From Kiloniellales bacterium (GTDB lineage Bacteria; Pseudomonadota; Alphaproteobacteria; Kiloniellales; J153), in contig DASWJP010000109.1 in the NCBI GenBank assembly GCA_036397065.1, forward strand, positions 32,538-96,537: 64,000 bases of DNA, in the 5' to 3' direction. Shown here piece by piece: positions 32,037-50,010 of the stretch. The notes beneath the pieces are model-generated. The model had not been told where the DNA came from and ran no database searches. It saw only the letters and a program-made list of their open reading frames with translations. Within the stretch, counting starts at the first letter, position 1, and each line of letters starts with the position of its first letter. Position numbers and translations under genes: made by a program.

Positions 32037-33569
32037 ATGCTAGACTTGGCGATTGCCGGGGAAGTAGTGCCAGTTCGGGAGATTTGGGTGGGCCACCGGA
32101 TGCGCGACGATTTTTTCCACCTGCGCCATGACGGCGAGGCCACCCTGCAGTCGCAGCTGCGCCAGATGCTGGTTTCAGCGATTCTTCAGGGCCAGCTGCC
32201 GAAGGGTGAGCCGCTGCCGTCGTGCCGGCGGCTGGCGCAGAACCTGTCGGTGGCGCGCAACACGGTGACGCTCGCCTACCAGGACCTGGCGGCGGATGGG
32301 TTCCTGATCGCGCGCGAACGGCGCGGCTACTTCGTCAACGAGCAGATCCTGGAGGGCCGGGCCAAGCGCATCGCGGCCGCGCCGGCGGCGGACCACCGCG
32401 CGCCGGATTGGGCCGCGCGGTTCCAGGTCCGGCCGTCGCAACAGCACAACATCGTCAAGCCGCAGAACTGGCAGCTCTATCCCTACCCGTTCATCTACGG
32501 ACAGTTCGATCCCGCCCTGTTCCCGATCGCGGATTGGCGGCAATGCTCGCGCCAGGCGCTCAGCGTCGATGCGGTGCGGGAGTGGGCCAGCGACAGCTTC
32601 ACCGAGGACGATCCGCTTCTGGTCGAACAGATCCGCACCCGCCTGCTGCCACGGCGCGGCATCCGGGTGACGGCGGACGAGATCCTGGTGACCGTAGGCG
32701 CACAGCACGCGTTGTACCTGCTGTCCAACCTGTTGCTGGCCGCCGGGACTACGGTCGGCTTCGAGGACCCCGGCTATGTCGATGCGCGAAACATCTTTTC
32801 CCTGACGACCCAGCGCATCCGCCCGCTCGCCATGGACGAACAGGGGCTGATCGTCGATGAACAGTTGAGTGGCTGCGATTACGTCTACGTCACGCCGAGT
32901 CATCAGTTCCCGACGACGGCGACCCTGTCCCTCGACCGGCGCACACGATTGCTGGAACGTGCCCGGCGTGACGACTTCATCGTCATCGAGGACGACTACG
33001 ACAGCGAGATCAACCATGGCGGCTCGCCCACCGCGGCGCTCAAGTCGATCGATGAAAGCGGCCGCATCATTTTCCTGGCCAGCCTGTCGAAGACCTTGGC
33101 GCCGGGCTTGCGCCTTGGCTACATGGTCGGGCCGAAGGCGCTGATCGCCGAGGCCCGGGCCCTGCGGCGCCTGATGCTGCGCCATCCGCCGACGAACAAC
33201 CAGCGGACATTGGCGACGTTTCTGGCCCTGGGGCACCATGACGCACTGTGCCGCCGCCTGCGCCATGCCTACCGGGACCGCTGGGAGGTAATGGGAGGGG
33301 CGCTGCAACGGCACCTGCCGACGTGCACGTTCCACCGGACCACCGGCGGCACCGCCTATTGGGTGGCCGGTCCGCCGGATTTGGATACCGCCGTGGTGGC
33401 ACAGGCCGCGGCGAAACGGGGCGTGCTGATCGAACCCGGCGCGGTGCACTTCATGGCCAAGGCCCCGTCGCACTATTTCCGGCTGGGCTTCTCCTCGATC
33501 CCGGTGAAACGGATCGAGCCCGGAATCCGCATTCTGGGCGAGATCATCGACGCGTGTTCCCGGCGGTGA
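32037..33569 (+). CDS. MocR/PdxR-subfamily GntR regulator (winged HTH fused to an aminotransferase-like domain).
   Basis: HTH segment LPSCRRLAQNLSVARNTVTLAYQDLAADGF plus a fold-type I AT domain with SLSKTLAPGLRLGY. Divergent from the transporter/aminotransferase operon. Alternative start at 32100. Confidence 0.85.
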   Translation: MLDLAIAGEVVPVREIWVGHRMRDDFFHLRHDGEATLQSQLRQMLVSAILQGQLPKGEPLPSCRRLAQNLSVARNTVTLAYQDLAADGFLIARERRGYFVNEQILEGRAKRIAAAPAADHRAPDWAARFQVRPSQQHNIVKPQNWQLYPYPFIYGQFDPALFPIADWRQCSRQALSVDAVREWASDSFTEDDPLLVEQIRTRLLPRRGIRVTADEILVTVGAQHALYLLSNLLLAAGTTVGFEDPGYVDARNIFSLTTQRIRPLAMDEQGLIVDEQLSGCDYVYVTPSHQFPTTATLSLDRRTRLLERARRDDFIVIEDDYDSEINHGGSPTAALKSIDESGRIIFLASLSKTLAPGLRLGYMVGPKALIAEARALRRLMLRHPPTNNQRTLATFLALGHHDALCRRLRHAYRDRWEVMGGALQRHLPTCTFHRTTGGTAYWVAGPPDLDTAVVAQAAAKRGVLIEPGAVHFMAKAPSHYFRLGFSSIPVKRIEPGIRILGEIIDACSRR

Positions 33570-34898: not shown

Positions 34899-35717
34899 TT
34901 GCAACGCGGGAGCGACAGACTCTTGAGGCTCAAGGAAGACATATTCACCGGACCGCAACCGCTGTTTCAGCAGTTCAAGGACTACATTTTGGCCCGCATC
35001 CGGTCGGGCGAATGGCCCCCGGGCACGAAGATCCCCTCGGAGAATACGCTGGTCCGCGAACTTGGCGTCAGCCGCATGACCCTCAACCGGGGCCTGCGCG
35101 AGCTGATGCACGAGGGCTTCATCGCCCGCGTCCATGGCGTTGGCACGTATGTGCGCGACCTGCCGCACCAGACCAGCCTGATCGAGCTGCGCAACATTGC
35201 CGACGAAATTCGCGCCCTCGGCCATGAGCATAGCGCCGACATTATCAAGGCCGGGGATGCCGTGGCGACACGGGATCTGTCCGAGCGGTTCGGCGTGGCG
35301 GCGGGCAGCAACCTGTTCCACGTCGTCCTGGTTCACAACCAGGACGGCGTTCCCGTGCAGATCGAGAACCGCTTCGTCAACCCGGAGATCGTGCCGGATT
35401 TCCTGGACCAGGATTTCACCAAGCTAACCCCCACCGGCTATCTGGTATCCGTTGCCCCGGTCGGGGAGCTGGAGCATGTGGTCAAGGCCCGCATGCCGAC
35501 GTCCGAGGAACAGGATCTGCTGGACATCGAGCCGGCGGAGCCGTGCCTGGTCTTGCACCGGCGGAGCTGGTCGTGGGGCATGGTCGTTTCGGTTGTCACC
35601 TTCACCTATCCGGCGGGCCGCTATGAGTTGCGCGGCCGCTACCGCACGACGGCGATGGGCACCCTGGCGGAAAGCCACTCTCACCGCCCCGTCCTCGGCG
35701 AGATACCGAAACCATAG
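34899..35717 (+). CDS. hutC: GntR-family regulator of the HutC subfamily (wHTH plus UTRA domain).
   Basis: KIPSENTLVRELGVSRMTLNRGLRELMHEGFIARVHGVGTYV, plus a UTRA-like C-terminal half. The start is uncertain (TTG at 34899). Confidence 0.75.
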   Translation: MQRGSDRLLRLKEDIFTGPQPLFQQFKDYILARIRSGEWPPGTKIPSENTLVRELGVSRMTLNRGLRELMHEGFIARVHGVGTYVRDLPHQTSLIELRNIADEIRALGHEHSADIIKAGDAVATRDLSERFGVAAGSNLFHVVLVHNQDGVPVQIENRFVNPEIVPDFLDQDFTKLTPTGYLVSVAPVGELEHVVKARMPTSEEQDLLDIEPAEPCLVLHRRSWSWGMVVSVVTFTYPAGRYELRGRYRTTAMGTLAESHSHRPVLGEIPKP

Positions 35718-35790
35718 GAATGATGACATGGGAGTTGAACACTCCCGATTGGACAACACTGACCATCTATCGAAAACGAGGGAGGCAAGA

Positions 35791-36936
35791 ATGAAACTGC
35801 GTTCAATTCTGCACGGCTTGGCTGGCTGCCTGGCCCTGAGCGTTTCACCGGCGATTGCGGAAACGGTTCATATCGGCTTCAACGCTCCCTTGACCGGGTT
35901 TGCCGCCGCCGATGGCAAATCCGCTCTGGGCGGTGCCGAGCTGGCGGTTGAGCAAACCAACGCCGCCGGCGGCATCAATGGGGTCAACGTCGAACTGATC
36001 GTCTATGACGATCAGGCCTCGCCCGATGAGGCGGTGCCGATTGCCCAGAAACTGATCGAGAAGGATCAGGTGGTCGCCGCGGTCTCCGGCAGCTATTCAG
36101 GCTCGACGCGGGCCGCCGCCGGTATCTTCCAGGAGGCGGGTGTGCCTTACATTTCCGCCTATGCCATTCACCCGGATATCACCCGGGCCGGCAACTTTGT
36201 CTTCCGCACATCCTTTGTGGGCGAGGTGCAGGGCCGCGCCGGTGCCAAGTTGATCGGCGAAATGCTGGGCAAGAAGAAGGTGACCCTGATCACCCTGCAG
36301 AACGATTTCGGCAAATCCCTTACCGCGGGCTTCAAGGAAGCCGCCGGCAAGTATGGCATAGACATCATTTCGGAATATGAATACGGCATCAAAGACCGGC
36401 AGTTCGGCCCCATCGTCTCCAAATTGAAGAGCGATAACCCGGAGGCGATCTACGCATCCGGTTACTTCTTCACCGCCGGGCCGCTGGTCAATCAGCTTCG
36501 CGCAGCCGGGATAGAGGTTCCGGTCATCGGGCAGGAAGGATACGATTCGCAGAAGTTCATCGAGATCGCCGGCGCCGCCTCGGAGGGCACGATCATTACC
36601 ACGTCATTGGACCGCGATTCGAACACCATGGAAGCCAAGGACTTCATCGCCGCCTTCGAGAAAAGCGGCGACCGGAAGGTCGACATGGTGGCGGCCTCGG
36701 CCCATACCGCGGTGAAAGTGCTGGTGGAAGCCATGCGCAAGGCCGGCACCAGCGACCGAAAGGCGCTGCGCGATGCGATCGCGGCCACGAAGCTGACCGC
36801 ATCGACGGGCGAGATCTCGTTCAACGAGCTGGGCGAGGTCCGCAAGGATGTTCAGGTGCAAGTCGTCAAGGATGGCAACTGGCATCATTACGCGGTGATC
36901 AGCGATCCGGACTTGCTGGCGCCCCCGACCGAGTAG
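35791..36936 (+). CDS. Liv/HAAT-family periplasmic binding protein (set 1).
   Basis: GGGAGG RBS. Signal peptide MKLRSILHGLAGCLALSVSPAIA. PBP type I body. The track ORF 35452..36936 is a false extension. Confidence 0.85.
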   Translation: MKLRSILHGLAGCLALSVSPAIAETVHIGFNAPLTGFAAADGKSALGGAELAVEQTNAAGGINGVNVELIVYDDQASPDEAVPIAQKLIEKDQVVAAVSGSYSGSTRAAAGIFQEAGVPYISAYAIHPDITRAGNFVFRTSFVGEVQGRAGAKLIGEMLGKKKVTLITLQNDFGKSLTAGFKEAAGKYGIDIISEYEYGIKDRQFGPIVSKLKSDNPEAIYASGYFFTAGPLVNQLRAAGIEVPVIGQEGYDSQKFIEIAGAASEGTIITTSLDRDSNTMEAKDFIAAFEKSGDRKVDMVAASAHTAVKVLVEAMRKAGTSDRKALRDAIAATKLTASTGEISFNELGEVRKDVQVQVVKDGNWHHYAVISDPDLLAPPTE

Positions 36937-36947
36937 TCCTATCCTGA

Positions 36948-36982
36948 CCGGGACGCCGCGTCCGTTTGAGGCGGCGTCCCGG
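36948..36982 (+). terminator. 12-bp GC-rich stem-loop (CCGGGACGCCGC / GCGGCGTCCCGG) just after the binding-protein gene. A T5 run follows 10 nt later. Probably an intra-operon attenuator or mRNA stabiliser.
   Basis: Read from sequence. Confidence 0.45.
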
Positions 36983-37050
36983 CAGCAGGGGTTTTTCGGC
37001 GCTGCCGCCAGCCCCGCCCGCGTTTCACCTTACGTCCGGCAAGCGATCTC

Positions 37051-37914
37051 ATGCTCTATATCGAACTGGTCGTACAGGGGATCGTTCAGGGCAGCATCTA
37101 CGCGTTGATCGCGCTGGGTCTGGCGCTGGTCTACGGGCTGTTGCGCATACTGCACGTGGCGCACGCGGCGCTCTTCACGCTGGGTGGTTACATCGGTGTC
37201 TTGGTGACCAACGCCACCGGCAGCTTCGCCCTGGCGCTGGTGATTGCCATGATCGCGGTCGGCTGCATCGGCATGGCCGTGTACAAGATGGCCTACGAGC
37301 CGCTGTTATCCCACCCGCCTTACATTGCATTGATCGCCTCGATCGCCCTGTTCATCGCCGCCGAGGAGATTTATCGGATCGTTTTCGGACCTTACGGCCT
37401 CTCCTATGACAAACCGCCGCTGCAGGGACAGATCGAGCTGTTCGCCGGTTTTTTCCTGAAATACGGCGAGGCCCTCGTCATCGTTCTGTCGGTCACCATG
37501 CTTTCGGCGCTCGCCTGGCTTTCCTTAAACACGCGCGTCGGCGTGTCGTGGCGGGCAACGGTGACCGATCCGCAGATGGCCCGCGCCTTTGGGGTCAGCA
37601 CCCAGAACGTGCGCTATCTAAATTTTTTCGTCGGATCGGCCCTGGCTGCGGCCGCCGGCGTTTTGGTGGCACTCCTCAACAATCTGGTCGAACCGACCAT
37701 GGGCAGCGTCCCATCGTACAAGGCGCTGGCCATCATCGTGCTCGGCGGGTTGGGCAGCATTCGCGGAACCCTGCTGGCCTCGATGCTTCTGGGAATCATC
37801 GAAACCTTCGGCACGATCTATATAGGCCATCTGCTCGACCGGGATGCCTTGGCGTTTGCCTTCCTGATCCTGGTGCTCATGGTCCGCCCCCGCGGATTGT
37901 TGGGAAGCCGCTAG
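37051..37914 (+). CDS. HAAT-family ABC permease, LivH-like (set 1).
   Basis: Typical LivH N-terminus LVQGIVQGSIYALIALGLALVYG. Confidence 0.9.
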   Translation: MLYIELVVQGIVQGSIYALIALGLALVYGLLRILHVAHAALFTLGGYIGVLVTNATGSFALALVIAMIAVGCIGMAVYKMAYEPLLSHPPYIALIASIALFIAAEEIYRIVFGPYGLSYDKPPLQGQIELFAGFFLKYGEALVIVLSVTMLSALAWLSLNTRVGVSWRATVTDPQMARAFGVSTQNVRYLNFFVGSALAAAAGVLVALLNNLVEPTMGSVPSYKALAIIVLGGLGSIRGTLLASMLLGIIETFGTIYIGHLLDRDALAFAFLILVLMVRPRGLLGSR

Positions 37915-37917
37915 GCG

Positions 37918-38769
37918 ATGGCGTATGAGATCACCCTGCTCACCACCATGGCGATCAGCGTTCTTTTTGCGCTCAGCCTGAATTTCATCTCCGGATTCTG
38001 CGGCCAGATCAGCCTGGGGCACGCCGCATTCATCGGCGCCGGTGCTTATGCATCCGCCCTATTGGCGAAGTCATCGGTGCCCTTTCTTCTGACCTTGCCG
38101 GCCGCAGCCCTGACGGCCGGTGTCATTGGGCTGGTGATCGGCCTGACCAGCCTTCGCGTGCGCCATGACTTTCTGGCGATCACCACCATGGGCGTCGGAT
38201 TTCTCTTTGTCGGCATCGTCCGGCAACAGGATTTCCTCGGCGGCGAGATCGGCATCTCGGGCATTCCATCGTCGGGCCTGAGCCGGGTCGGTTTCATGGC
38301 CTTCTGCATCGGCCTGGCGTTGGCCTTTGCCGCGTTCTCCCTGTTCATCCGCCGGTCGTGGATGGGGTTCGTCTTCGATTCGATCGCCGATAATGAGGAC
38401 GTCACGCGCATCCTTGGCATCGATGCTTCCCGGTATAAATTGATTGCCTTCGTCATAGGCACCGCCGTCGCCGGGATCGCTGGCGCATTGTATGCCCATC
38501 ACTTCCGCTTCGTCGGCCCGGACAGTTTCGGCTTCGTGGAATCCGTGAGCATCCTGGCCATGGTGATTGTCGGCGGCATCGGATCGGTCTGGGGTGTTGC
38601 GTTTTCGGCCGCCGTATTGAGCGTCCTGCCGCTGCTTGTGCAATTCGTCGACGACTACAAGCTGCTCGTCTACAGCGGCCTGTTGTTCGCCGTCATGCGG
38701 TTTGCCCCCGATGGGCTGGCCGGCATGATCCGGCGGCTGCGCAATCGCGTTCGCAAGGCGCCGCCATGA
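37918..38769 (+). CDS. HAAT-family ABC permease, LivM-like (set 1).
   Basis: GQISLGHAAFIGAGAY motif. Hydrophobic profile. Confidence 0.9.
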   Translation: MAYEITLLTTMAISVLFALSLNFISGFCGQISLGHAAFIGAGAYASALLAKSSVPFLLTLPAAALTAGVIGLVIGLTSLRVRHDFLAITTMGVGFLFVGIVRQQDFLGGEIGISGIPSSGLSRVGFMAFCIGLALAFAAFSLFIRRSWMGFVFDSIADNEDVTRILGIDASRYKLIAFVIGTAVAGIAGALYAHHFRFVGPDSFGFVESVSILAMVIVGGIGSVWGVAFSAAVLSVLPLLVQFVDDYKLLVYSGLLFAVMRFAPDGLAGMIRRLRNRVRKAPP

Positions 38770-39515
38770 CCGAGGTTCTGAACGTTCAAGACGTGACCGT
38801 CCGCTTCGGCGGCGTGGTTGCGGTCGCCGATGTGTCCCTGATCATACGCGACGGGGAGATGGTCGGCTTTATCGGCCCAAATGGCGCCGGCAAGACCACG
38901 TTGATGCGGGTCATCACCGGAATCGTCCAGCCGCAGGAAGGCCGCGTCCTTCTGAACGGCCGGGATCTGGCGGGCCTGACGGTCAACGCCCGGGTCCGCG
39001 CCGGCCTGGCCCTGGCGCAGCAGATCGTTCAGCCCCTGCGGGCTTTGTCCTTGCTCGATAATGTGGCGTTGGCATGCGGGCGCGTTAAAACGAACCATGT
39101 CCTCGCCGCAATGGTCCGCACCGATCGGTCACGGGAGCGGCGCAGGGCCATGGACCTGCTGGGTCTGGTCGGCCTGGCCGATGCCGCCCACGAGCTGCCC
39201 GCAACGCTGCCACTGGGCTTTCTGAAACGGATGGAGGTGGCCCGGGCCATGGCGCTTGAGCCCGAGCTGCTGCTGCTCGACGAGCCCCTGGCCGGCCTCA
39301 ACCATGCGGAAGCGGCCGCTCTGGCCAACCTGATCGCCGATCTCAACCGGCAGGGTCAGACGATCCTCTTGATCGAGCACAACATTCGTGAGGTCACGCG
39401 GATCTGCAAGACGCTCTACGTTCAGGACAACGGGCGCCCCCTCGCCTACGGAGACACGGCCTCTGTGATGGCCAATCCAGAGGTGCGGCGGGCCTATCTT
39501 GGAGCCAACGCCTGA
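38766..39515 (+). CDS. HAAT-family ABC ATPase, LivG-like (set 1).
   Basis: Walker A GPNGAGKTT. Overlapping stop/start with neighbours. Confidence 0.9.
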   Translation: MTEVLNVQDVTVRFGGVVAVADVSLIIRDGEMVGFIGPNGAGKTTLMRVITGIVQPQEGRVLLNGRDLAGLTVNARVRAGLALAQQIVQPLRALSLLDNVALACGRVKTNHVLAAMVRTDRSRERRRAMDLLGLVGLADAAHELPATLPLGFLKRMEVARAMALEPELLLLDEPLAGLNHAEAAALANLIADLNRQGQTILLIEHNIREVTRICKTLYVQDNGRPLAYGDTASVMANPEVRRAYLGANA

Positions 39516-40219
39516 TGCTCGATGTCTCCGGCTTGACGTGCGGCTATGGCGATATCGTCGCTGTCCGGGATGTGTCGATGAGCGTGCAGGCTGGCTCGAT
39601 CCTGGCCCTGCTCGGCGCCAATGGCGCCGGCAAGACCTCGACCCTGATGACCCTGGTCGGCCTGTGCGAGTTGAAGGCGGGCACCATCCGCCTGCACGGC
39701 GAAGATATCTCTGCCTTGCCCGCGGAACGGCGTATCCGCAAGGGCCTGTCGATCGTCCCGGAAGGTCGCCGTATCTTTCCCGATTTGTCGGTCGAGGAGA
39801 ATCTGATGATCGGCGGCCACGTGATGCCAACGGCGGCGATGCGGCGGAACATCGACGCCGCTCTGACCCACTTCCCGCGCCTCAAGGACCGCAGGCGCCA
39901 GACTGCCGGGTCGCTCTCCGGTGGCGAGCAACAGATGCTGGCCATGGGCCGGGCGCTTATTTCCGAACCGCGCTTGCTGCTTGTCGACGAGCTGTCGTTG
40001 GGCTTGATGCCCGCGGTGGTCGACGAATGTTACCGTGTCCTGCGCGCGTTGCGGGACGATGGCCTGGCGATCGTCCTGGTCGACCAGAACACCGAGAAGG
40101 CCCTCGATGCCGCCGACACCGTTTGTATTCTCGAGGCGGGAAACCTGACTTGGACCGGAACGTCGGCGGAGGCCCGCCGCGACGATGCCCTGGCGGAGGC
40201 CTTTCTCGGGCAAAGCTAG
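39515..40219 (+). CDS. HAAT-family ABC ATPase, LivF-like (set 1).
   Basis: Walker A GANGAGKTS and signature LSGGEQQMLA. Confidence 0.9.
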   Translation: MLDVSGLTCGYGDIVAVRDVSMSVQAGSILALLGANGAGKTSTLMTLVGLCELKAGTIRLHGEDISALPAERRIRKGLSIVPEGRRIFPDLSVEENLMIGGHVMPTAAMRRNIDAALTHFPRLKDRRRQTAGSLSGGEQQMLAMGRALISEPRLLLVDELSLGLMPAVVDECYRVLRALRDDGLAIVLVDQNTEKALDAADTVCILEAGNLTWTGTSAEARRDDALAEAFLGQS

Positions 40220-40231
40220 CCTACGCGCCGG

Positions 40232-42679
40232 TTAAGACCGCACCCGCGTCTTGTCCGGATCGTAGAAGGGGAAACGGACCACCGTGGCCGGGATGCGTTT
40301 CTGATGGCCGTCCAGCTTGCCCACCTGCACCTCCGTGCCGAGGGCACCATGCTCGACGGCAACCCGGGCGAGCGCGATGTTCTTGCGCAACACCGGCGAC
40401 CGGCAGCCGCTGGTGACGACGCCGACCGTCTGGCGGCCGATGTGAATGCAGTCGCCGTGGGCGCCCGGCTCCTCCCCCGCCAGATCCAGGCCGACCAGCA
40501 TTCGTTGCGGATGCGCCTTGCGCCGGATGAGGGCCTCCTTGCCGACGAAGTCGTCCTCCTTGCTCTGCAACGGCACGGTGAAACCGATGCCGGCTTCGAA
40601 CGGATCGGTTTGATCGTCGAACTCGGTGCCGGCAAAGATCAGGCCGGCTTCGATGCGCAAAATATCCAGGCCCTTGAGCCCCAGGGGCATCAGGCCGTGC
40701 GGTTCCCCGGCCTGCCAGATCGCATCCCAAACGGTGACGGCGTCCTTCGGGTGGCACCACACCTCGTAACCCAATTCGCCGGTGTAGCCGGTGCGCGAAA
40801 CGATCACCGCGGTGCCGTCGGCATGGCCGATGCGGCCGATGGCGAACCGGAACCATCCCAACTCGGCGAGTGCCGGTTGCGCCGGCGGCGTCCAGATGAT
40901 TTCGCTCAGGATCTCGCGGCTGCGCGGTCCCTGGACCGCCAGGTTGTGCAACTGGTCGCTGGAGCTCTTGACCCAGGCATTCAGGCCCAGCGTCTTGGCC
41001 TGCTCGCGCAGCCAGATGCCGCCGTAGTCGTCGCCCCCGATCCAGCGGAAATTCTGGCCGCCCAGCCGGAACAAGGTGCCGTCGTCGATCATCCCGCCGG
41101 TGTCGTAGCACATGGCCGAATAGACGACCTGGCCGACCGCCAACCGGCGCACGTTCCGGGTCAGGGTTTGCTGCAACAGCACTTCGGCATCCGGCCCAAC
41201 AACCTCGACCTTGCGCAAGGGCGACAGGTCCATGACCGTCGCCTTCTCCCGGCACGCCCAATACTCGGCCAGCTCGCCATGATTGGTAAAGCTGTCGGGC
41301 AGCCAATAGCCGCGATATTCGGAAAAGTTGCGCGTCAAGGCCGAGGTGCGCGGGTGGAAGCCGGTTTCCTTGGTCATCTGCGCCTCCGACTCCGTGGTCT
41401 TTCTGTAACCGATCGATTTTGCGAATGCCTTTTCCGGGCCATAGACGCGCAGATGAATCTCCGTCGGGTTCCACGCGTTGGCGGCGTCGATATCGTCTGG
41501 GCACGCCGACGACACGCACACCAGATCGGTCAGGGCCCGCAGCAGCACATGGTCCCCCGGCCGCGACCAAGGATCATCCGTAAGCAGCTGGTTGTGCGCG
41601 TCGATGCTGGAGTTGAAGAAAAAATTCATCGCCATCCAGCCGCGGCGCGGCGCGATGCCGTACGGCGCCAGGGCCTGGTTGAAATTTTCCGAGCAATTGA
41701 CGTGACCCGGGTACCCTTGGTCCTCGTAGTACTTGGCGGTGCAGGCCAAGCCGAACGCATCGTGACGTCCGCACGTGTCCTGCACCACCTCGACGAGGGC
41801 CAGCATGTCCTGGTCGAAATATTTCGACAACAGGCCGGGGCCGGGATAGGCGGCGCCGACCAACGAGCGCGTGGTGGTCACATCGAGACAGCGTTCGATG
41901 CCCCGATCCAGGGACGCCTGCCGAAACGACTGAAAGTCGGAACACTGCCGCCCCTCGACGTCGATCACTTGAATATATTCGCCGGCGCGGACCAGATACG
42001 ATTCCGCCGTCGCCCGGTTGATCCGGAAATCCAGCCGCGGCGTGGCCAGCGGCGCGGGCAAACGCGCAACGGCCTCGGCCGGCGGATTGGCCCGCTCGAC
42101 AAACACCTCGATTTCGGTGGGCGCATCCTGGGCATCGACCCGCATCGGCGCCCCCGGCGCCGCCACGATCACGATGCAGTCCTGTTGCGCCTGCAAGCTT
42201 TCTTGCTGACCGGCCGCCGCCTCCGGCCCGAACAGATCGACCGAACGGGCATTATCCAACGCGATGCCGTGCCGGGCCAAAGCCGCCTGCAACGTGCCGT
42301 CGCCGGTGGAAACGAGATCCTTCACGCCGGCACCCGATCCGTTGACCCGGCCTCCCAAGGAGTCCGATACATTCCGCCCGCCGTTGGCGAAGGCCAATAC
42401 CTCGCACGGTTGGCGCCCTTCGCGGTCGATCAGTATGAGCCGGTCGCCGCTGCCGGCGGCCAGGAACAGGGTGCCGCGTCCGGCCACGACATAGCGCTCG
42501 GTCCGCGGCGGTAGCGCGCGAAGTCCCGGCGTCAGCACGCGCGGCCTTTGCCCCATGAGCGGGGGCTCGTGACCGGCCACAGGCTGTGGTTTGACCAATT
42601 CGCTCACCCGTCCGAGTAGCCATTGCGGAATGCCCTTATTCATACCATTCAATGGACTAACCGCATAGTCGAGAATCAT
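40232..42679 (-). CDS. tdm: Trimethylamine N-oxide demethylase-type protein: N-terminal DUF1989 domain fused to a C-terminal GcvT-like tetrahydrofolate-binding aminomethyltransferase domain.
   Basis: About 815 aa. The DUF1989-like Cys-rich half has TCGRHDAFGLACTAKYYEDQGYPGHVNCSENF. The GcvT half has VSRTGYTGELGYEVW and LRIEAGL. tmm lies 6 kb away. The start is uncertain (ATG at 42679 or 42643). The first 90 aa of the track ORF overlap the divergent gene and are rejected. Confidence 0.8.
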   Translation of the reverse strand: MILDYAVSPLNGMNKGIPQWLLGRVSELVKPQPVAGHEPPLMGQRPRVLTPGLRALPPRTERYVVAGRGTLFLAAGSGDRLILIDREGRQPCEVLAFANGGRNVSDSLGGRVNGSGAGVKDLVSTGDGTLQAALARHGIALDNARSVDLFGPEAAAGQQESLQAQQDCIVIVAAPGAPMRVDAQDAPTEIEVFVERANPPAEAVARLPAPLATPRLDFRINRATAESYLVRAGEYIQVIDVEGRQCSDFQSFRQASLDRGIERCLDVTTTRSLVGAAYPGPGLLSKYFDQDMLALVEVVQDTCGRHDAFGLACTAKYYEDQGYPGHVNCSENFNQALAPYGIAPRRGWMAMNFFFNSSIDAHNQLLTDDPWSRPGDHVLLRALTDLVCVSSACPDDIDAANAWNPTEIHLRVYGPEKAFAKSIGYRKTTESEAQMTKETGFHPRTSALTRNFSEYRGYWLPDSFTNHGELAEYWACREKATVMDLSPLRKVEVVGPDAEVLLQQTLTRNVRRLAVGQVVYSAMCYDTGGMIDDGTLFRLGGQNFRWIGGDDYGGIWLREQAKTLGLNAWVKSSSDQLHNLAVQGPRSREILSEIIWTPPAQPALAELGWFRFAIGRIGHADGTAVIVSRTGYTGELGYEVWCHPKDAVTVWDAIWQAGEPHGLMPLGLKGLDILRIEAGLIFAGTEFDDQTDPFEAGIGFTVPLQSKEDDFVGKEALIRRKAHPQRMLVGLDLAGEEPGAHGDCIHIGRQTVGVVTSGCRSPVLRKNIALARVAVEHGALGTEVQVGKLDGHQKRIPATVVRFPFYDPDKTRVRS

Positions 42680-42757
42680 TCGAGGCGTGACAACAGCCCG
42701 TAATCGGCTAGGATATTCGCGCCTGTGAATCCCTGATCCACGACCCGGAGACCCAAT

Positions 42758-43540
42758 ATGTCCGTGCCTGAAAAGCCTATCCTGGAGGTGCGCAATCTGG
42801 TGCGGCGCTTCGGCGGCCTGACGGCCATCGGCGGCTTGAGCTTCGAGGTTTATCCAGCCACCATCCACGGCTTGATCGGCCCGAACGGTGCCGGCAAGAC
42901 GACCACGTTCAATGTCATCTCCGGATACTATCCGCCAACCAGCGGCCAAGTGGTGTATCAGGGTCAGGACGTCTCCGGACGGCGGACCAGCGCTCTGGCC
43001 GAAATCGGTTTGATCCGGACGTTTCAGGGCACGACCCTATTCCATGAAATGTCCGTCCGCGACAATGTCCGCATCGGTTGCCACTGGCACGCGCGGTCGG
43101 GTTTTCTCAGCCGTCTGACCGGCGCCGATTGGAAAAGCGAGGCAGCGGCGGATCGCCAGGCCGACGAAATCCTCGAATTCTTCAACTTGCAGGGGCACGC
43201 AGGGGAGCTGGCGGGCAACCTACCGCATGGCTTTCAGCGGGCACTGGGCATGGCGGTGGCGCTGGCCGCCAAGCCCAAGGTCATGCTCCTGGATGAACCG
43301 TTCACCGGCATGAACGCGGAAGAGACGCGGCAGATGATGGAGCATGTCCGGCAGCTGCGCGCCGTGCACGAGATGACCATCATGTTGGTGGAACATGACA
43401 TGCAAGCGGTGATGGGCCTGTGCGACACCATCACCGTGATGAATTTCGGCAGCCTGCTGGCCGAGGGAACGCCGGACGTGATTCGCGCCAACCCCGCCGT
43501 GGTCGAGGCCTATCTGGGGAGCGCCGACTATGCTGCTTGA
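42758..43540 (+). CDS. HAAT-family ABC ATPase, LivG-like (set 2).
   Basis: Walker A GPNGAGKTT and Walker B MLLDEPFTGMN. Confidence 0.9.
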   Translation: MSVPEKPILEVRNLVRRFGGLTAIGGLSFEVYPATIHGLIGPNGAGKTTTFNVISGYYPPTSGQVVYQGQDVSGRRTSALAEIGLIRTFQGTTLFHEMSVRDNVRIGCHWHARSGFLSRLTGADWKSEAAADRQADEILEFFNLQGHAGELAGNLPHGFQRALGMAVALAAKPKVMLLDEPFTGMNAEETRQMMEHVRQLRAVHEMTIMLVEHDMQAVMGLCDTITVMNFGSLLAEGTPDVIRANPAVVEAYLGSADYAA

Positions 43541-44237
43541 GGTGCGCAACATCCGCGTCCACTACAAGAAAGTCGAAGCCCTCAAGGGTGTGAGCATCGA
43601 CGTGCCCGAGGGCAGCATCGTCACCATCATCGGCGCCAACGGGGCCGGCAAGACCACCACCCTGCGCACCATTTCAGGCCTCGAGCGGGTGACCGAAGGC
43701 GAGATTTGGTTTGCCGGCGAGCGTATCGACCACCTCTTGCCCGAGGAGATCGTCGCCCGCGGCATCGCCCATGTGCCGGAAGGCCGACGGGTCTTTCCCG
43801 ATTTGACCGTCGAGGAGAATCTGCGCACCGGCGCCTTTCTGCGCCGGAACAAGGCCGATGTTGAGAGCGATCTGGAGGACATCTTCAGGCATTTTCCCCG
43901 GCTCAAGGAGCGGCGCCGGCAATGGGCAAAGACCCTGTCCGGTGGCGAGCAGCAGATGCTGGCCATCGGCCGCGCCCTGATGTCGAAACCGAAGCTTCTG
44001 CTGCTCGACGAGCCGTCCGTCGGCTTGTCGCCGGTGATGGTTCAGGAAATCGCCGGCATCATCGTCACCATCGCGGCGCAAGGGGTACCGGTCGTGCTGG
44101 TCGAACAGAACGCGGCGCTGGCCTTGCGCCTGGCCCAGTTCGCCTATGTGCTGGAGACCGGGTCCCTCGCCCTGCAAGGGCCGGCCGGCGAGCTGCGCAC
44201 CAACGATCACGTCCGCCAGGCCTATCTCGGTGGCTGA
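43530..44237 (+). CDS. HAAT-family ABC ATPase, LivF-like (set 2).
   Basis: Walker A GANGAGKTT and signature LSGGEQQMLA. Confidence 0.9.
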   Translation: MLLEVRNIRVHYKKVEALKGVSIDVPEGSIVTIIGANGAGKTTTLRTISGLERVTEGEIWFAGERIDHLLPEEIVARGIAHVPEGRRVFPDLTVEENLRTGAFLRRNKADVESDLEDIFRHFPRLKERRRQWAKTLSGGEQQMLAIGRALMSKPKLLLLDEPSVGLSPVMVQEIAGIIVTIAAQGVPVVLVEQNAALALRLAQFAYVLETGSLALQGPAGELRTNDHVRQAYLGG

Positions 44238-44838
44238 GACGGCGTGGACCGTCGCCGAGCTGCTGCAGGCCGGCTGGTCCGAAACCGATCTGGAGTGGGA
44301 ACGGCTGGCGGTGACGACGCTGCAAGCGTTGGTCCATGGCGAGTCCGCAGCGGTGCAGCGCCATGCCGGCGCGGCCGTTAGCCTGGCGCGGGAGCACTTT
44401 GCCGCCGACGACCCGCGCCTGGCCGCCTCTCTGGCCAACTTCGCCATCGCTCTCGGACCCGGCGGCACGCACGGGGCCGATCTGCTGGCGGAGGCCGGAC
44501 GGATCTGGGCTTCCTGCACCCCTTGGCTCGAGGCCATGACCGCCCCGCGCAGCGCCAGGTCGTCGCTGTTTCACCTGCGCATGGAAGCGCGCCACCGCGA
44601 TACCTATCGGGAACGTTGGGTGGTCAAGTGGCGCGAGCTGGCCGATGAGGGCCGCCGCAGCGTGGACCGCCTGGTCAACGGGAACCAAGCACCCGGCGGT
44701 CAGCCCGCGGCCTCCGAAGAACGGTTGCAACGGTGGCGGCGCGAGTGCCCGGCCATGCTCAATGATACCCGCAAACTTCTAGCGGCGGTGATCCTGACCG
44801 CCGCACCGGGGGATTCAACCGGTCACTTGGCCGACTGA
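44230..44838 (+). CDS. Hypothetical cytoplasmic protein (about 202 aa), translationally coupled to the LivF-like gene.
   Basis: GTG at 44230 overlaps the upstream stop by 8 nt. High third-position GC along the whole frame. No TM segment or signal peptide. No family recognised. Confidence 0.5.
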   Translation: MAETAWTVAELLQAGWSETDLEWERLAVTTLQALVHGESAAVQRHAGAAVSLAREHFAADDPRLAASLANFAIALGPGGTHGADLLAEAGRIWASCTPWLEAMTAPRSARSSLFHLRMEARHRDTYRERWVVKWRELADEGRRSVDRLVNGNQAPGGQPAASEERLQRWRRECPAMLNDTRKLLAAVILTAAPGDSTGHLAD

Positions 44839-45842
44839 TCGACCGCTCCCGGGGCTTCGCCACGGCGGCGGCGAAACCATTCGAGGCCCTTCGTGATCAG
44901 ACTTTCCAGGCCATTGGGCAGGAACAGGATGGAGGCGATCAGGATCGCCCCGTAGAACATCGGGCGCATCTCATCGACGCCAAGCTCGCGCAACAAAACC
45001 TCGTTGATGATGGTCAGCACGGTAACCCCCAGGATCGGGCCATAGAATGTCGCCGTGCCGCCGACGATGGCCCAGATCAGCACGTAAACCATCTCCGCCA
45101 CATCGAAGCGGGTCGGGTTGACCGAACCGACATAGTGCGCATACAGCGCCCCCGCGAGGCCGGCAAAGAACGAGGCGATCACGAAGGCCATCGTGCGGTA
45201 CCGGGTGGTATTGATCGCCACGGATTCCGCCAGCTTGTCCTGCCAGTGAATGGCATGAAAGGTCAGGCCCAACCGCGACCGCTCGATCCGGTAGAGAATG
45301 AAGAGCGATGCCGCGACGACGAGGCCGGCGAGATAGTAGTAGTGGACCGGCTCATAGAAATCCCAGTGCAGCCCGCCAAGTTCGAAACTGGGAAACTCAG
45401 GAATCAGTTTCAGGCCCTTGGGCCCGCCAAACGGATCCGTGAACCGCTTCCAGATCAGGCGGATGATCTCCCCGGCGGCAAATGAGCCGATGAGAAAGTA
45501 GAACCCCTTCATGCGCAGGAGCGGGAAGCTGAGCCCATAGGCGACGGCCGCGGCGGTGACAGCACCCAGCAGCATGGAGATGGGAACCGGAATGCCAAGT
45601 CCCTTGGCGAACAGGGCGCTGGCATAGCCGCCCACACCCATGATGACCACGTGGCCGAGGGACCATTCGCCGGTCAGGGTCTGCATCCGGTAGCTGACCA
45701 CCAGCAGAACATTGATGACCAGCAGGACCAGGATCTCTTGCTGGGAGTAACTCAGCACGTGGGGCAGCGCGATGAACATCGCCAGTCCGGCCACGACGGC
45801 AATCGCCCACCTCATCTGCACGGCACCGGCACGCTCAGGCAC
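44823..45842 (-). CDS. HAAT-family ABC permease, LivM-like (set 2).
   Basis: Hydrophobic LivM-like profile. GTG at 45842 overlaps the upstream stop; an alternative ATG lies at 45815. Confidence 0.85.
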   Translation of the reverse strand: MPERAGAVQMRWAIAVVAGLAMFIALPHVLSYSQQEILVLLVINVLLVVSYRMQTLTGEWSLGHVVIMGVGGYASALFAKGLGIPVPISMLLGAVTAAAVAYGLSFPLLRMKGFYFLIGSFAAGEIIRLIWKRFTDPFGGPKGLKLIPEFPSFELGGLHWDFYEPVHYYYLAGLVVAASLFILYRIERSRLGLTFHAIHWQDKLAESVAINTTRYRTMAFVIASFFAGLAGALYAHYVGSVNPTRFDVAEMVYVLIWAIVGGTATFYGPILGVTVLTIINEVLLRELGVDEMRPMFYGAILIASILFLPNGLESLITKGLEWFRRRRGEAPGAVDQSAK

Positions 45843-46704
45843 GTTCCTTGGCCCCGAACAACCCGGTCGGCTTGACCACCAGAACGGTGAGCATCAGGGC
45901 CAGACCGACGATATTGGCGATCACCCCATCGAAGAGCGTGGTGACGAAGGTATGGACGAAGGCATAGAGGATCGCGGCGACCACCGCCCCTTCCAGATGC
46001 CCGATGCCGCCGACGATGATGATGATAAAGGCCGTGACAATCACCGAATGCCCCATGAGCGGCGTCGGGCTGACCAGGGGCGCCGTCAGCGCCCCGGCCA
46101 CACCGGCCAGGGCGGCGCCGATGAACATGGCCAACTGCGCCGTGCGGTTCAGGGATATGCCCTGGAGCCGGGCCGCCTCCGGATCCTGGGCGCAGGCCCG
46201 CAAGGCCCAGCCGAAGCGCGACTTGCGCAGGAATACCCATAGCCCGCTCAGCAGGATAATGGCGGCGACGATGACATAGAGGCGCTGATAGGTCAGCACG
46301 ATCGCGTCGCCGAGAATGAGCTTCTCCTGGGTGGACGGCGGAATGTGTTCCATGCGCACGCCGAAGCCGAGCACCGCGAGGGTCTGCAGGATCAGCAGGA
46401 AGCCGATGGAGGCGATCAATCCGCCCAGCGGATTGCTGCGCAGGGGCCGGAACAGGCCCCGCTCCATCACCAATCCCAGCAGGCCGACAAAGACCAGCCC
46501 GACGGCCACCGCCACGAAAAACGGAAAATCCTGTTTGGCGTACAGAAAGACGACCGTATAGGCCCCGGCCATGTAGAGCTCGCCATGGGCGAAATTGATC
46601 ACCCCCATGACGCCGAAAATCATCACCAGGCCGACCGCGATCAAGGCCATGTAGCTGGCCGCGTAGGTGGCATTGACCAAGGTCTGCAACAGCAAGTCGG
46701 CCAC
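45835..46704 (-). CDS. HAAT-family ABC permease, LivH-like (set 2).
   Basis: N-terminus LLQTLVNATYAASYMALIAVGLVMIFG. Confidence 0.9.
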   Translation of the reverse strand: MADLLLQTLVNATYAASYMALIAVGLVMIFGVMGVINFAHGELYMAGAYTVVFLYAKQDFPFFVAVAVGLVFVGLLGLVMERGLFRPLRSNPLGGLIASIGFLLILQTLAVLGFGVRMEHIPPSTQEKLILGDAIVLTYQRLYVIVAAIILLSGLWVFLRKSRFGWALRACAQDPEAARLQGISLNRTAQLAMFIGAALAGVAGALTAPLVSPTPLMGHSVIVTAFIIIIVGGIGHLEGAVVAAILYAFVHTFVTTLFDGVIANIVGLALMLTVLVVKPTGLFGAKERA

Positions 46705-46720
46705 GGCCAGGCGCCCCCAT

Positions 46721-46754
46721 CAAAACCGGGACCGGAAGTACGCTCCGGTCCCGG
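46721..46754 (-). terminator. 11-bp stem-loop (CCGGGACCGGA / TCCGGTCCCGG) followed by TTTT on the minus strand, between the binding-protein and permease genes. Probable partial terminator or attenuator.
   Basis: Read from sequence. Confidence 0.5.
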
Positions 46755-46807
46755 ATCCTAGCATGACTCAGATGCGCCGGGCGGTCGGCCCGGCACCCGC
46801 GGTCAGT

Positions 46808-48130
46808 TTAACCGCGCTGATTCCACATCTGGCCCAGCGCCGTCATGTGCTTGACCAGGAGAGCGCCGTTCTTGTCCCACCAATCGGGAATCGACCGGAA
46901 CTCCTTGATCACCGCCTTGCCATCCTCAATGGCCACGACCGGCCAGTTGCCGACCAAGGCATTGTCGATGCCGAACAGCTCCTTGCCCCACCATTTGGCG
47001 TCGCCAAAGGCATGCTTGCCCTTGCCATCGGCCTTCATGGCGACGAGGACATCGGCGGGCTCGACACTGCCGGCCTTGATCGCCGCATCGGCCCACAGGT
47101 CCATGATCGAAGCGTACTCCCAGGACACCGCGCCCCACTCGCTTTCGCCGTACCGCTTGGCGTATTCGGCGTAGAAGTCGTTCGGTTTCTGGAAATTGAC
47201 GCCATTGCCGTTGAGGGCCGGATCGTCGAAATCCGGGAACTGGAAGATGAAGCCTTCCATGAATTCCTTCGACGTCTTCTCGATGATCTTCGGATAGAAA
47301 TCCGCGGTGCAGGAGATGATCTGGCCTTTGAAGCCCTGCTGATACGCCTGCTCGCACAGCGGGTGGACGTAGTCGGCATAGGCCGTATCGAGGCACAGGA
47401 TATCCGGCTTGTTGGCCAGCAGCTTGGTCATCACCGGCGCGAAGTCGGTGGTGGCCGGATCGAAGAATGTCGGATCTTCCACCACCTTGATGCCGGCCGC
47501 ATCGAAGGCCGCCAGGTAGGTCGCCACCGACGGCTTGCCCAGGGCATCGTCCTGGGCGCAGATGACCGCGGTCTTCAGCTCAGGCTTGTTTTGCGCCAGC
47601 CAGTCGACGCCGGTCACGTTATAGATCGGATGCACCTCGCACGGAGCCACCAGGGTCTTGGTGTCCGGGGTCAGATCGCTGGGCAGCAGCGTTGAGAAGA
47701 GCATGCCCTCCTTCTCGGCGATCTTCTGCACGCCCGGCCATGGATCGCCGCCGAGCATCATGATGAACTTGACGCCGTCTTCCTTGATCAGCTTGGTGGC
47801 GCCGGTGCGCGCCTTGCCGGCATCGTATTCTTCGTCATAGGCGACGAATTCCACCTTGTAGGTATCGCCGCCGATCTGCAGTCCGCCCGCGGCGTTGACC
47901 CAGTCGCCCCAAATCCGGCAGCCATCCAGCCCGGGCTTGCCCCAGGCGGCCACGTCGCCGGTCAACGGCGCGAGGAAGCCGATTTTCACCACCTTCTCCG
48001 CCGCGAAGGCGAATCGCGGCATGGCGGTTTGCGCCATGATGGCGACCGCGCCGGTCGCCGCCGTCGTGCTCAAAAATTGCCGTCTTGATACGCTCGTCGA
48101 GAGTCGATGCTTGCGGGTTTTGGATGTCAT
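46808..48130 (-). CDS. HAAT/amide-type (PBP type I) periplasmic binding protein with a twin-arginine signal (set 2).
   Basis: Start MTSKTRKHRLSTSVSRRQFLSTTAATGAVAIMA at 48130 after a GGGAGGA RBS. The track ORF 46808..48376 is a false extension. Confidence 0.85.
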   Translation of the reverse strand: MTSKTRKHRLSTSVSRRQFLSTTAATGAVAIMAQTAMPRFAFAAEKVVKIGFLAPLTGDVAAWGKPGLDGCRIWGDWVNAAGGLQIGGDTYKVEFVAYDEEYDAGKARTGATKLIKEDGVKFIMMLGGDPWPGVQKIAEKEGMLFSTLLPSDLTPDTKTLVAPCEVHPIYNVTGVDWLAQNKPELKTAVICAQDDALGKPSVATYLAAFDAAGIKVVEDPTFFDPATTDFAPVMTKLLANKPDILCLDTAYADYVHPLCEQAYQQGFKGQIISCTADFYPKIIEKTSKEFMEGFIFQFPDFDDPALNGNGVNFQKPNDFYAEYAKRYGESEWGAVSWEYASIMDLWADAAIKAGSVEPADVLVAMKADGKGKHAFGDAKWWGKELFGIDNALVGNWPVVAIEDGKAVIKEFRSIPDWWDKNGALLVKHMTALGQMWNQRG

Positions 48131-48663
48131 TTTGTCCTCCCATGATGACCGTCGAGCCGCAGCGACATGCGGCCCCGGTCCATCTCGTTGCTTTGTTCGT
48201 TTGCCTGACGGTCCGCGTTGGTCACATTCCCCGTCCGTCACCGTCGCCCCTGCACACCCCCTAAACCACTTTGGACCAAATAGTGCCAGCACATTGCTTG
48301 CATCCTGTGATATATACGCCCCATCTTGTGGTGAGATCAAGGAATGACGGAAAATTGGTTGTAATTGGGTAGACACTGGTCACCGTTCAGCATAACTTTG
48401 CATGAAGCAAATCAATGGGGTCGGGCCGCCGCCCGCGGCGAACCCGGCCACCGCCGATCTGCCGAACGCCGCCCCGTTTGCGCCGGCTGGCGGGCGGAAG
48501 ATCGGCATAGGGAGGGTATAAACGAGAGAGCCGCGCTCACTGCGCCGCGGCCGACGGTTTCCATCAATTCGCATCCGGCGGCGGGTCGAAACCATCTGTT
48601 CGGCCAAGCCCGCCGGGGTGACCGGAGACGGATCGGATCACTGACTTTCGGAGGGAAGTAGGT

Positions 48664-50010
48664 ATGACTCAACGTGTTGCAATTATTGGTGCTGGTCCAT
48701 CCGGCCTTGCTCAGCTCCGGGCCTTTCAATCGGCCGCCGCCAAGGGCGCCGATGTCCCCGAGGTCGTCTGCTTCGAGCGGCAGGAAGATTGGGGCGGCAT
48801 CTGGAACTATACCTGGCGCACCGGCACCGACGAGCTGGGCGAACCCGTCCATTGCAGCATGTACCGCTACCTCTGGTCGAACGGACCGAAGGAATGCCTG
48901 GAGTTCGCCGACTATACCTTCGAGGAGCATTTCGGCCGGCCGATCGCCTCATACCCGCCCCGCGAGGTGTTGTGGGATTACATCAAGGGGCGCGTCGAAA
49001 AAGCCGGCGTGCGCGACAAATGCCGGTTCCGGACACCGGTGCGCCATGTCGAATACTCCGAGAAAACCGGCAAGTTCACCGTCACGGCTCATGATCTGAA
49101 TAAGGATCACGTCTACGCGGAACAGTTTGACTACGTGGTGGTCGCCTCCGGGCATTTTTCCACACCCAACGTGCCGTACTTCAAGGGCTTCGATACCTTT
49201 GGCGGGCGGGTCATGCATGCGCACGATTTCCGCGATGCGCTGGAATTCAAGGGCAAGGACATCATCATCGTCGGCACCAGCTATTCCGCCGAAGACATCG
49301 CATCGCAGTGCCACAAGTACGGCTGCAAGTCCGTGACCATCAGCTACCGGACCAATCCGACCGGCTTCCACTGGCCGGATAGTTTCAAGCAGGTTCCGTT
49401 GATCACAAAAGTCGAGGGCAACACCGTCCATTTCAAGGATGGCTCGTCAACGTATGCGGATGCCATCATCCTATGCACCGGGTATCTGCACCACTTCCCG
49501 TTCCTGCCGGACGATCTGCGGCTGAAGACCGGCAACCGCCTGTGGCCGCTGGATCTCTACAAGGGCGTCGTCTGGGAGAAGAATCCGAAGCTGATGTACC
49601 TCGGCATGCAGGACCAATTCTACACGTTCAACATGTTCGACGCCCAGGCGTGGTATGCCCGGGACGTCATCCTCGGGCGCATCGATTTGCCGTCAAAAGC
49701 CGAGATGACGAAGCACAGCAAGGCCTGGCGGGCGCGCGAGGAAAAACTGAGCACGGACGAGGAAAAGATCTATTTCCAGGGCGATTACACCCAGGAGCTC
49801 ATCGACGCGACCGATTATCCCAGCTTCGATGTCACCGGCGTCAACAAGACGTTCATGGAGTGGGAACACCATAAGCACGAAAACATCATGGGGTTCCGCG
49901 ACAACTCCTATCGTTCCCTGATGACCGGAACCATGTCGCCCAAGCACCATACGCCCTGGATCAAGGCGATGGACGACTCGATGAAGTCCTATCTGGGGAA
50001 AAAGGGTTGA
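48664..50010 (+). CDS. tmm: Trimethylamine monooxygenase (bacterial flavin-containing monooxygenase).
   Basis: FAD motif [12 protein letters not shown] signature FxGxxxHxxxF appears as [16 protein letters not shown] motif VGTSYSAED. About 447 aa, typical of bacterial Tmm. GGAGGG RBS. Confidence 0.85.

Follow-up and report, generated by a model that had tools for sequence, protein, structure and literature searches.

The window analysed here is a stretch of 64,000 nucleotides from a Kiloniellales bacterium (positions 32,538 to 96,537 of contig DASWJP010000109.1, C109 in our numbering, of the 3.39 Mb, 95.8% complete assembly GCA_036397065.1), with a high GC content of about 64%. At positions 40232–50010 it holds tdm and tmm, the genes for the demethylase that acts on trimethylamine N-oxide (TMAO) and for trimethylamine (TMA) monooxygenase, and between them a Liv-type ATP-binding cassette (ABC) importer (HAAT) that is split into two convergent units. 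We suggest that this importer takes up TMA. The genes of the locus, all of which are present at the positions given in a preliminary description of the sequence, are listed here with the other features, SBP being the binding protein encoded at 46808–48130:

40232..42556, minus strand: tdm, TMAO demethylase; domains DUF1989, GCV_T and GCV_T_C; 1228 bits on NF053776, cut-off 1100
42557..42757, no strand: divergent control region that separates tdm from the ATPase unit, with one sigma-70-like site
42758..43540, plus strand: LivG-type ABC ATPase; ABC_tran and BCA_ABC_TP_C; 245 bits on the LivG model, under its cut-off
43530..44237, plus strand: LivF-type ABC ATPase; ABC_tran; 250 bits on the LivF model, under its cut-off
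44230..44838, plus strand: conserved protein of 202 amino acids (aa), putative cytoplasmic accessory; no Pfam or NCBIfam match; helical, TPR-like
44823..45842, minus strand: LivM-type permease; BPD_transp_2, 131.7 bits
45835..46704, minus strand: LivH/UrtB-type permease; BPD_transp_2, 134.5 bits; 192 bits on the UrtB model, cut-off 250
46726..46754, minus strand: GC-rich hairpin with a 12-bp stem and a T-tract, separating the SBP gene from the permease genes (livH)
46808..48130, minus strand: SBP, periplasmic binding protein of 440 aa exported by twin-arginine translocation (Tat); Peripla_BP_6, 160.8 bits, and TAT_signal
48131..48663, no strand: divergent control region of 533 nt between the SBP gene and tmm, read directly
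48664..50010, plus strand: tmm, TMA monooxygenase, FMO-like; 838 bits on NF058570, cut-off 675

Equivalog calls for tmm and tdm compare NCBIfam scores with the NCBI cut-offs, and both genes exceed theirs, which bears out the identities first assigned to them. Tdm carries the Pfam domains PF09347, PF01571 and PF08669; its open frame spans 40232–42949 (minus strand), the NF053776 model begins at residue 144 of this long frame, and the start is likely the ATG at 42556, giving a protein of 774 aa. The SBP and the two permeases form one importer unit on the minus strand, the two ATPases and the 202-aa gene the other on the plus strand, and the 3' ends of the two units overlap by 16 nt (44823–44838). 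With PF13458 on the SBP, PF02653 twice, PF00005 twice and PF12399 on the LivG-like protein, the domain content is that of HAAT systems (TC 3.A.1.4). The five transporter genes are thus one complete HAAT-type ABC importer, as the preliminary description had read them: two BPD_transp_2 permeases, two ATPases and a Peripla_BP_6 SBP between tdm and tmm.

The SBP–tmm arrangement is not due to chance and holds across several orders. Among 41 related genomes, 15 have an SBP orthologue (67–85% identity), and in ten of the 41 tmm lies beside it, directly in nine and 2 kb away in G026 (the ten are G012, G013, G016, G018, G026, G027, G032, G033, G037 and G040). The recurring order in these relatives is tmm, SBP-livH-livM, (hyp-livF-livG), tdm. 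Orthologues of the LivG-type ATPase that travel with the SBP are 57–73% identical, those of the LivF-type ATPase 68–80% and those of the LivM-type permease 62–78%. A pattern scan that took one genome for each GTDB species found SBP relatives in at least 573 species, and the best 80 loci, with an SBP of 72–83% identity, were then taken to tblastn. The surveyed loci come from Methyloceanibacter, Methyloligella, Mesorhizobium, Pseudaminobacter, Aquamicrobium and Hyphomicrobium, so that the Hyphomicrobiales are spanned, and also from Paracoccaceae, Kiloniellales, Thalassobaculaceae, Defluviicoccus and others. Fifty-four loci are well flanked (at least 5 kb upstream and at least 8 kb downstream), and tmm, called at ≥55% identity and ≥50% coverage, is at most 10 kb away from the SBP orthologue in 43 of them, or in 45 if two broken copies are included (L038 and L053, where tmm is present as fragments). 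It lies within 1 kb of the SBP gene in 30 of the 54, and tdm is present in 36. The surveyed genomes are mutually related, and the locus counts are therefore to be read as non-independent events. The preliminary description had proposed looking for HAAT genes by tmm or tdm elsewhere, and most of these loci, which come from other species, have that synteny with tmm.

Ten loci lack tmm nearby. At the genome level, a tmm that passes the cut-off is present at another place in seven of these genomes (in three of the seven on the same contig, 25–36 kb away), and in one of the ten an incomplete tmm stands at the edge of a contig. G127 and G129 have no tmm, yet contain enzymes of the trimethylamine dehydrogenase (TMADH) family. 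Every transporter-bearing exception genome tested thus has tmm or a TMADH-family enzyme, and some transporter-bearing genomes have two TMADH-family enzymes.

The same importer also occurs with an enzyme that is not homologous to Tmm. G001, a 99% complete genome of the same genus as the window genome, has neither tmm nor tdm at E ≤ 1e-100, and contains an orthologous operon of SBP (71–72% identical), livH, livM, livG, livF and, at 37% identity, a relative of the 202-aa gene. Directly after the operon stands a gene for a 732-aa Oxidored_FMN/OYE-like/Pyr_redox_2 protein that matches the TMADH of Methylophilus methylotrophus (PDB 1DJN/2TMD) end to end with 1301 bits and is about 75% identical to this characterised enzyme. 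The transporter operon is likewise followed by TMADH on three metagenome contigs (L103–L105; TMADH 90–93% identical), and at L040 a TMADH-family gene, 58% identical, comes after livF. TMADH converts TMA directly to dimethylamine (DMA) and formaldehyde, with no TMAO involved. Pairing of one transporter with either Tmm or TMADH therefore points to the only substrate common to both, TMA, rather than to TMAO, and between these two the evidence from gene neighbourhoods favours TMA. The link to TMADH is real and confined to few lineages: in a reverse check of 80 metagenome TMADH loci, with flanks of up to 10 kb on each side and often less, the system was found only at L103–L105 and L117. Two distant members of the SBP family, P0009 (47% identity) and P0014 (42% identity), are followed by a corrinoid protein and then an MttB-family methyltransferase, which by sequence would be a third unrelated type of enzyme acting on trimethylammonium-type substrates.

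Two side observations belong to these loci. L117 (19310–22184), from an organism of about 50% GC, has divergent livF-livG-livM-livH genes 49–59% identical to those of the window, 7 kb from TMADH, on a contig that ends before the position where an SBP gene could be seen. Directly upstream of the transporter–TMADH operon of G001 (L013:1301–9516) are apparent serine-cycle genes, with functions assigned by Pfam domains: a class-V aminotransferase of the serine-glyoxylate type, malate thiokinase-like CoA ligase subunits, a hydroxypyruvate-reductase-like dehydrogenase and PEP carboxylase. By its predicted gene content, this setting is consistent with a TMA-assimilating methylotroph.

The SBP belongs to a family of its own. 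Its score on the LivJ model NF011933 is 37 bits against a cut-off of 477, no specific NCBIfam model is reached, and there is no match to the UrtA models TIGR03407 and TIGR03669 at E ≤ 1e-5. With 112 clusters (50% identity) at E ≤ 1e-30 among 1.84 billion representatives (HMMER), the family appears from sequence comparison to be compact, small and distinct, and it has no name. The best sequence match in the PDB reaches E = 8e-9. An AlphaFold2 model built from 60 relatives (pLDDT 92.5) has the generic type-I SBP fold, and the top Foldseek matches are LivK, UrtA and AmiC (E 1e-21 to 1e-16; 15–22% identical). We tried to derive the ligand from homology and rejected this route: the solved relatives are at most 22% identical, and the ligands of the top matches range over leucine, urea, aromatic acids and amides. 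The modelled fold alone does not point to a ligand.

The residues at the predicted binding site were mapped by profile alignment. In LivJ/LivK the ligand contacts are Tyr/Trp18, Ser79, Ala/Gly100, Thr102, Tyr202 and Glu226, among which Ser79, Thr102, Tyr202 and Glu226 anchor the alpha-carboxylate and alpha-amino groups, with Ser79 and Tyr202 on the carboxylate. The SBP-family profile matches Escherichia coli LivK (2LBP) with E = 1e-42, and the alignment, at about 20% identity, leaves room for individual positions to be off by one or two residues. In it, LivK Ser79 corresponds to the invariant Gly128 of the SBP, Thr102 to Ser151, Tyr202 to Ala250 and Glu226 to Thr275. Conservation, read from two alignments of the SBP family (A1 and A2), places acidic residues next to these positions: Asp129, directly after Gly128, is invariant in A1 and nearly so overall, Asp152, directly after Ser151, is invariant, and the invariant Asp277 follows Thr275 by two residues. 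Trp63, which aligns with the LivK lid residue 18, is invariant in A1 and reaches a conservation of at least 90% in A2. Three acidic residues, together with a number of invariant Trp, Tyr and Phe residues, thus cluster at the contact positions or close to them. The control is the LivJ-like binding protein encoded nearby in the window (SBP2), which keeps the equivalents of Tyr202 and Glu226. A pocket with three Asp and aromatic residues and no carboxylate anchors is what would be expected for a small organic cation, and the predicted SBP pocket fits such a ligand in a way that is suggestive only.

We therefore propose, with a probability of roughly 0.65, that the five genes encode an ABC-type TMA importer of HAAT architecture, which may transport DMA as well. 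With a pKa of about 9.8, TMA is present as a cation at neutral pH, and a carrier is hence needed for its uptake at low concentrations. The Tat-exported SBP, which is the component that determines specificity and whose mature form begins at about residue 45, would capture the trimethylammonium cation that TMA forms at physiological pH, and perhaps DMA; the LivH/LivM-type permeases, driven by the LivG/LivF-type ATPases, would deliver it to the cytoplasm, where Tmm would oxidise it to TMAO and Tdm would split TMAO into DMA and formaldehyde. The importer halves would be read from promoters shared with tdm and tmm, which would probably place uptake under common regulation with the first two steps of catabolism. 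The preliminary description had left the substrate as TMA, TMAO or a related methylated amine; the very strongly conserved synteny upholds a methylated-amine importer, and the exchange of Tmm for TMADH makes TMAO the less likely option.

The five-part architecture and the type-I (cluster B) Peripla_BP_6 binding protein are shared with LivJ/LivK-LivHMGF of E. coli and with UrtABCDE/FmdDEF. In contrast to these, the window SBP is only 15–22% identical to solved members, stays under every NCBIfam cut-off, carries a Tat signal and has other residues at the equivalents of Ser79, Tyr202 and Glu226; the system sits by tmm or TMADH and not by amino-acid or urea genes, and it includes the extra conserved cytoplasmic 202-aa gene. 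Known TMAO importers are TmoXWV (Ruegeria pomeroyi and SAR11), an ABC system of the ProU/glycine-betaine type, and TmoP (Methylocella silvestris), a single permease. They too belong to methylated-amine islands beside tmm and tdm, but both take TMAO, whereas the window system is Liv-type and is also tied to the TMAO-free TMADH. The preliminary description was right to set the importer apart from TmoXWV, given its Peripla_BP_6 SBP, its BPD_transp_2 permeases and only a generic ATPase score on the ProV model. In G025 tdm is followed by a gene for an SSF-family symporter, which may be TmoP.

A further claim of the preliminary description, that no dedicated TMA importer had been established, is out of date. 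TmaT of Myroides profundi D25 is a BCCT-family Na+/TMA symporter (PMC7997507, PMC11708041), has been characterised biochemically and by cryo-EM, and binds TMA with a Kd of about 49 µM, and MttP of methanogens is a putative TMA transporter (PMC11708041). The predicted substrate and the role of feeding Tmm are the same for TmaT and the window system, but TmaT is of an unrelated family, a secondary carrier with no binding protein, and no BCCT domain is present among the genes at 40232–50010. We would expect a binding-protein-dependent ABC importer to operate at far lower concentrations than TmaT. In the literature searched, of which our coverage is incomplete, we found no description of an ABC-type TMA importer and no Liv-type system tied to tmm or TMADH; the model in a 2026 study on Aminobacter sp. 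NyZ550 shows ‘MA transporters’ that are not specified further (PMC13199381). What is new is thus most likely the predicted TMA specificity, on a known HAAT architecture.

Many loci contain a second binding protein, paralogous to the transporter SBP, beside a GntR/FCD regulator gene and tmm. The paralogues are 54–62% identical in the genomes checked in detail, and in other loci up to 89% identical to the paralogue of G001. The transporter SBPs have a twin-arginine motif in 78 of the 80 loci, whereas the paralogues have no RR motif, no hydrophobic core and no Tat or Sec signal. Examples are:

L013:9838–11115, signal-less SBP paralogue
L011:2929–4134, signal-less SBP paralogue
L018:13260–14507, signal-less SBP paralogue
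L017:9299–10528, signal-less SBP paralogue
L183:10001–11308, signal-less SBP paralogue

In G025 and G031 only the paralogous SBP is present, without permeases, and the window genome has no signal-less paralogue. The Roseobacter version (P0003, 48% identical to the window SBP) lies between tmm and the GntR/FCD gene, with amt and dmmDABC nearby. These SPO1552-type genes of the tmm/tmoR interval belong to the same SBP family and have the same candidate pocket residues as the window SBP, but differ from it in having no Tat or Sec signal and no permease genes. The gene between tmm and tmoR in R. pomeroyi was called of unknown function in a 2026 paper (PMC13390433). Candidate pocket residues are common to the paralogues and the transporter SBPs generally. 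From the missing signal, the paralogue is probably cytoplasmic, and we regard it as a candidate cytoplasmic methylamine sensor. Because the paralogues have the candidate pocket residues of the transporter, we keep DMA as a possible co-ligand.

Several points weigh against TMA as the substrate. The mapping of SBP residues uses an alignment at 20% identity. About 70 of the 80 metagenome TMADH loci (TMADH 71–75% identical) are without the transporter in flanks of up to 10 kb on each side, often less. Both contigs with MttB neighbours (L187 and L190) end before the diagnostic pyrrolysine codon, and MttB-family enzymes without pyrrolysine act on quaternary amines. Genetics in R. pomeroyi suggests that TmoR, encoded beside the paralogue, responds mainly to DMA, to a minor extent to TMAO and not to TMA (PMC13390433). 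If the paralogue is the sensor, DMA may then be a ligand of the whole SBP family.

These points bear on three other readings. That the main substrate is another member of the pathway, DMA (or monomethylamine) or TMAO, would agree with the position of tdm, which flanks the transporter in the window as well as in 36 of the 54 loci, with the TmoR effectors in R. pomeroyi (PMC13390433) and with the shared candidate pocket residues of the paralogue beside TmoR, and the two TMADH-family enzymes of some genomes could be TMADH and a DMA dehydrogenase. We nevertheless consider it unlikely: tmm is the gene tightest to the SBP gene (within 1 kb in 30 of 54), usually with a common promoter region, DMA and TMAO arise inside the cell from the pathway itself, and TMAO is already served by importers of other families, TmoXWV and TmoP. 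The G001 operon is moreover joined to TMADH in a genome with no tdm at E ≤ 1e-100, and thus with no Tdm route for TMAO. A quaternary amine that is a precursor or analogue of TMA, such as choline, glycine betaine or carnitine, would suit a pocket rich in Trp and acidic residues, and the MttB neighbours of the distant family members could be non-pyrrolysine enzymes for such compounds. The substrate of Tmm and TMADH is TMA, though, and not a quaternary amine, no choline, betaine or carnitine catabolic genes lie beside the transporter in the surveyed loci, and the aerobic routes for these compounds are not known to pass through TMA, carnitine oxygenase excepted, which makes this explanation very improbable. 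We give the least weight to an ordinary amino-acid, urea or short-amide HAAT that merely lies within the island, for example for nitrogen scavenging. It has on its side the architecture and fold of LivJ, UrtA and AmiC relatives, the 192 bits of the permease on the UrtB model and the few loci without a TMA enzyme within 10 kb; yet the synteny spans several orders, tmm or a TMADH-family enzyme is present in every exception genome tested, the SBP has no UrtA match and only 37 bits on LivJ, and by alignment the carboxylate anchors are not conserved in it while the adjacent SBP2 keeps them.

Methylated amines are a sizeable source of nitrogen and carbon in the sea and in soil, climate-active gases derive from them, and TMA also matters in medicine. 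The catabolic enzymes Tmm, Tdm, Dmm and TMADH are well studied. On record for TMA capture are only the Bacteroidetes BCCT carrier and a putative archaeal permease (PMC11708041), and an importer of the kind proposed here would explain how aerobic degraders capture TMA at environmental (nM) levels. If our proposal is true, hundreds of alphaproteobacterial species have such an importer beside tmm, its genes, which we expect to be labelled ‘branched-chain amino acid transporter’, need a corrected annotation, the genes could serve as a marker for TMA scavenging in metagenomes and metaproteomes, and the soluble SBP could become a scaffold for a TMA biosensor. A wider version is possible but doubtful as a whole: the SBP family would be the first ABC-type high-affinity importer of TMA, and probably DMA, spread widely among Alphaproteobacteria and recruited in separate events to Tmm, TMADH and corrinoid-MttB systems, with the signal-less paralogue as an intracellular methylamine sensor and the 202-aa protein as a new transporter accessory.

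The start of the 202-aa gene overlaps the livF stop by 8 nt, an arrangement that predicts translational coupling to livF. Homologues follow livF in 51 of the 80 loci, and one does the same in G001. The protein has 18 invariant columns, including the blocks ARSSLFHLRME..H and, at the C terminus, W..E...D.RK; its AlphaFold2 model (pLDDT 89.9) is all-helical and TPR-like, without a significant fold match in the PDB, and neither a signal peptide nor a membrane helix was detected. TorD-type chaperones are small helical proteins, and a role as Tat chaperone of the SBP was considered and rejected: there is no TorD/DmsD fold match, and 29 loci with Tat-signal SBPs are without the gene. We regard the 202-aa protein as a putative cytoplasmic accessory of the importer.

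Among the control features, the sigma-70-like site between tdm and the ATPase unit lies at 42687–42714 (plus strand) and is weak evidence, as shuffled sequence yields at least as many such sites. The genome has no regulator gene next to the tmm/SBP unit, and its best homologue of the GntR/FCD regulator of the G001 operon (TmoR-like by position) is 38% identical and on another contig. The hairpin at 46726–46754 has nine GC pairs in its 12-bp stem, followed by TTTTGATGGG. Hairpins between genes can lift the expression of the binding protein over that of the permeases in ABC operons, and this one may be a partial terminator or intra-operon attenuator that raises the SBP:permease ratio.

On the other side of tdm lies another transporter, the importer of which ends 12 nt from the tdm stop, as the preliminary description had noted:

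34899–40219, plus strand: GntR/UTRA (HutC-like) regulator, then a complete LivJ-type HAAT importer (35791–40219)

We considered this second HAAT set as part of the TMA system and rejected it, since SBP2 is an ordinary LivJ-like protein that keeps the equivalents of Tyr202 and Glu226. In other genomes this set shows no synteny with tmm or tdm, the sole match among the 80 loci being 30% identical, and from sequence it is best classed as a separate LivJ-type system. As to the DMA step, no dmm or gamma-glutamylmethylamide genes were found among the large open frames of the rest of the window, in agreement with the preliminary description. The DmmA-like and HODM domains of Dmm, looked for with PF11927 and PF22290, have no match in the window genome, although PF11927 also matched none of the control genomes and is therefore uninformative.

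Two minor observations concern TMADH-family genes in the window genome and transporters away from tmm. Outside the window, the genome has two TMADH-family homologues of 43–45% identity (G000:C210:5941–7980 and G000:C173:27356–29383), one of which has an in-frame TAA. At L090:8057–9376, and alike by tblastn at L092, L094, L095 and L101, Paracoccaceae/Silicimonas-type loci have the transporter in a place that is not beside tmm, and three of the genomes have tmm on the same contig at a distance of 25–36 kb; at L090 a gene for a DAO-family FAD oxidoreductase stands directly upstream of the SBP gene on the same strand.

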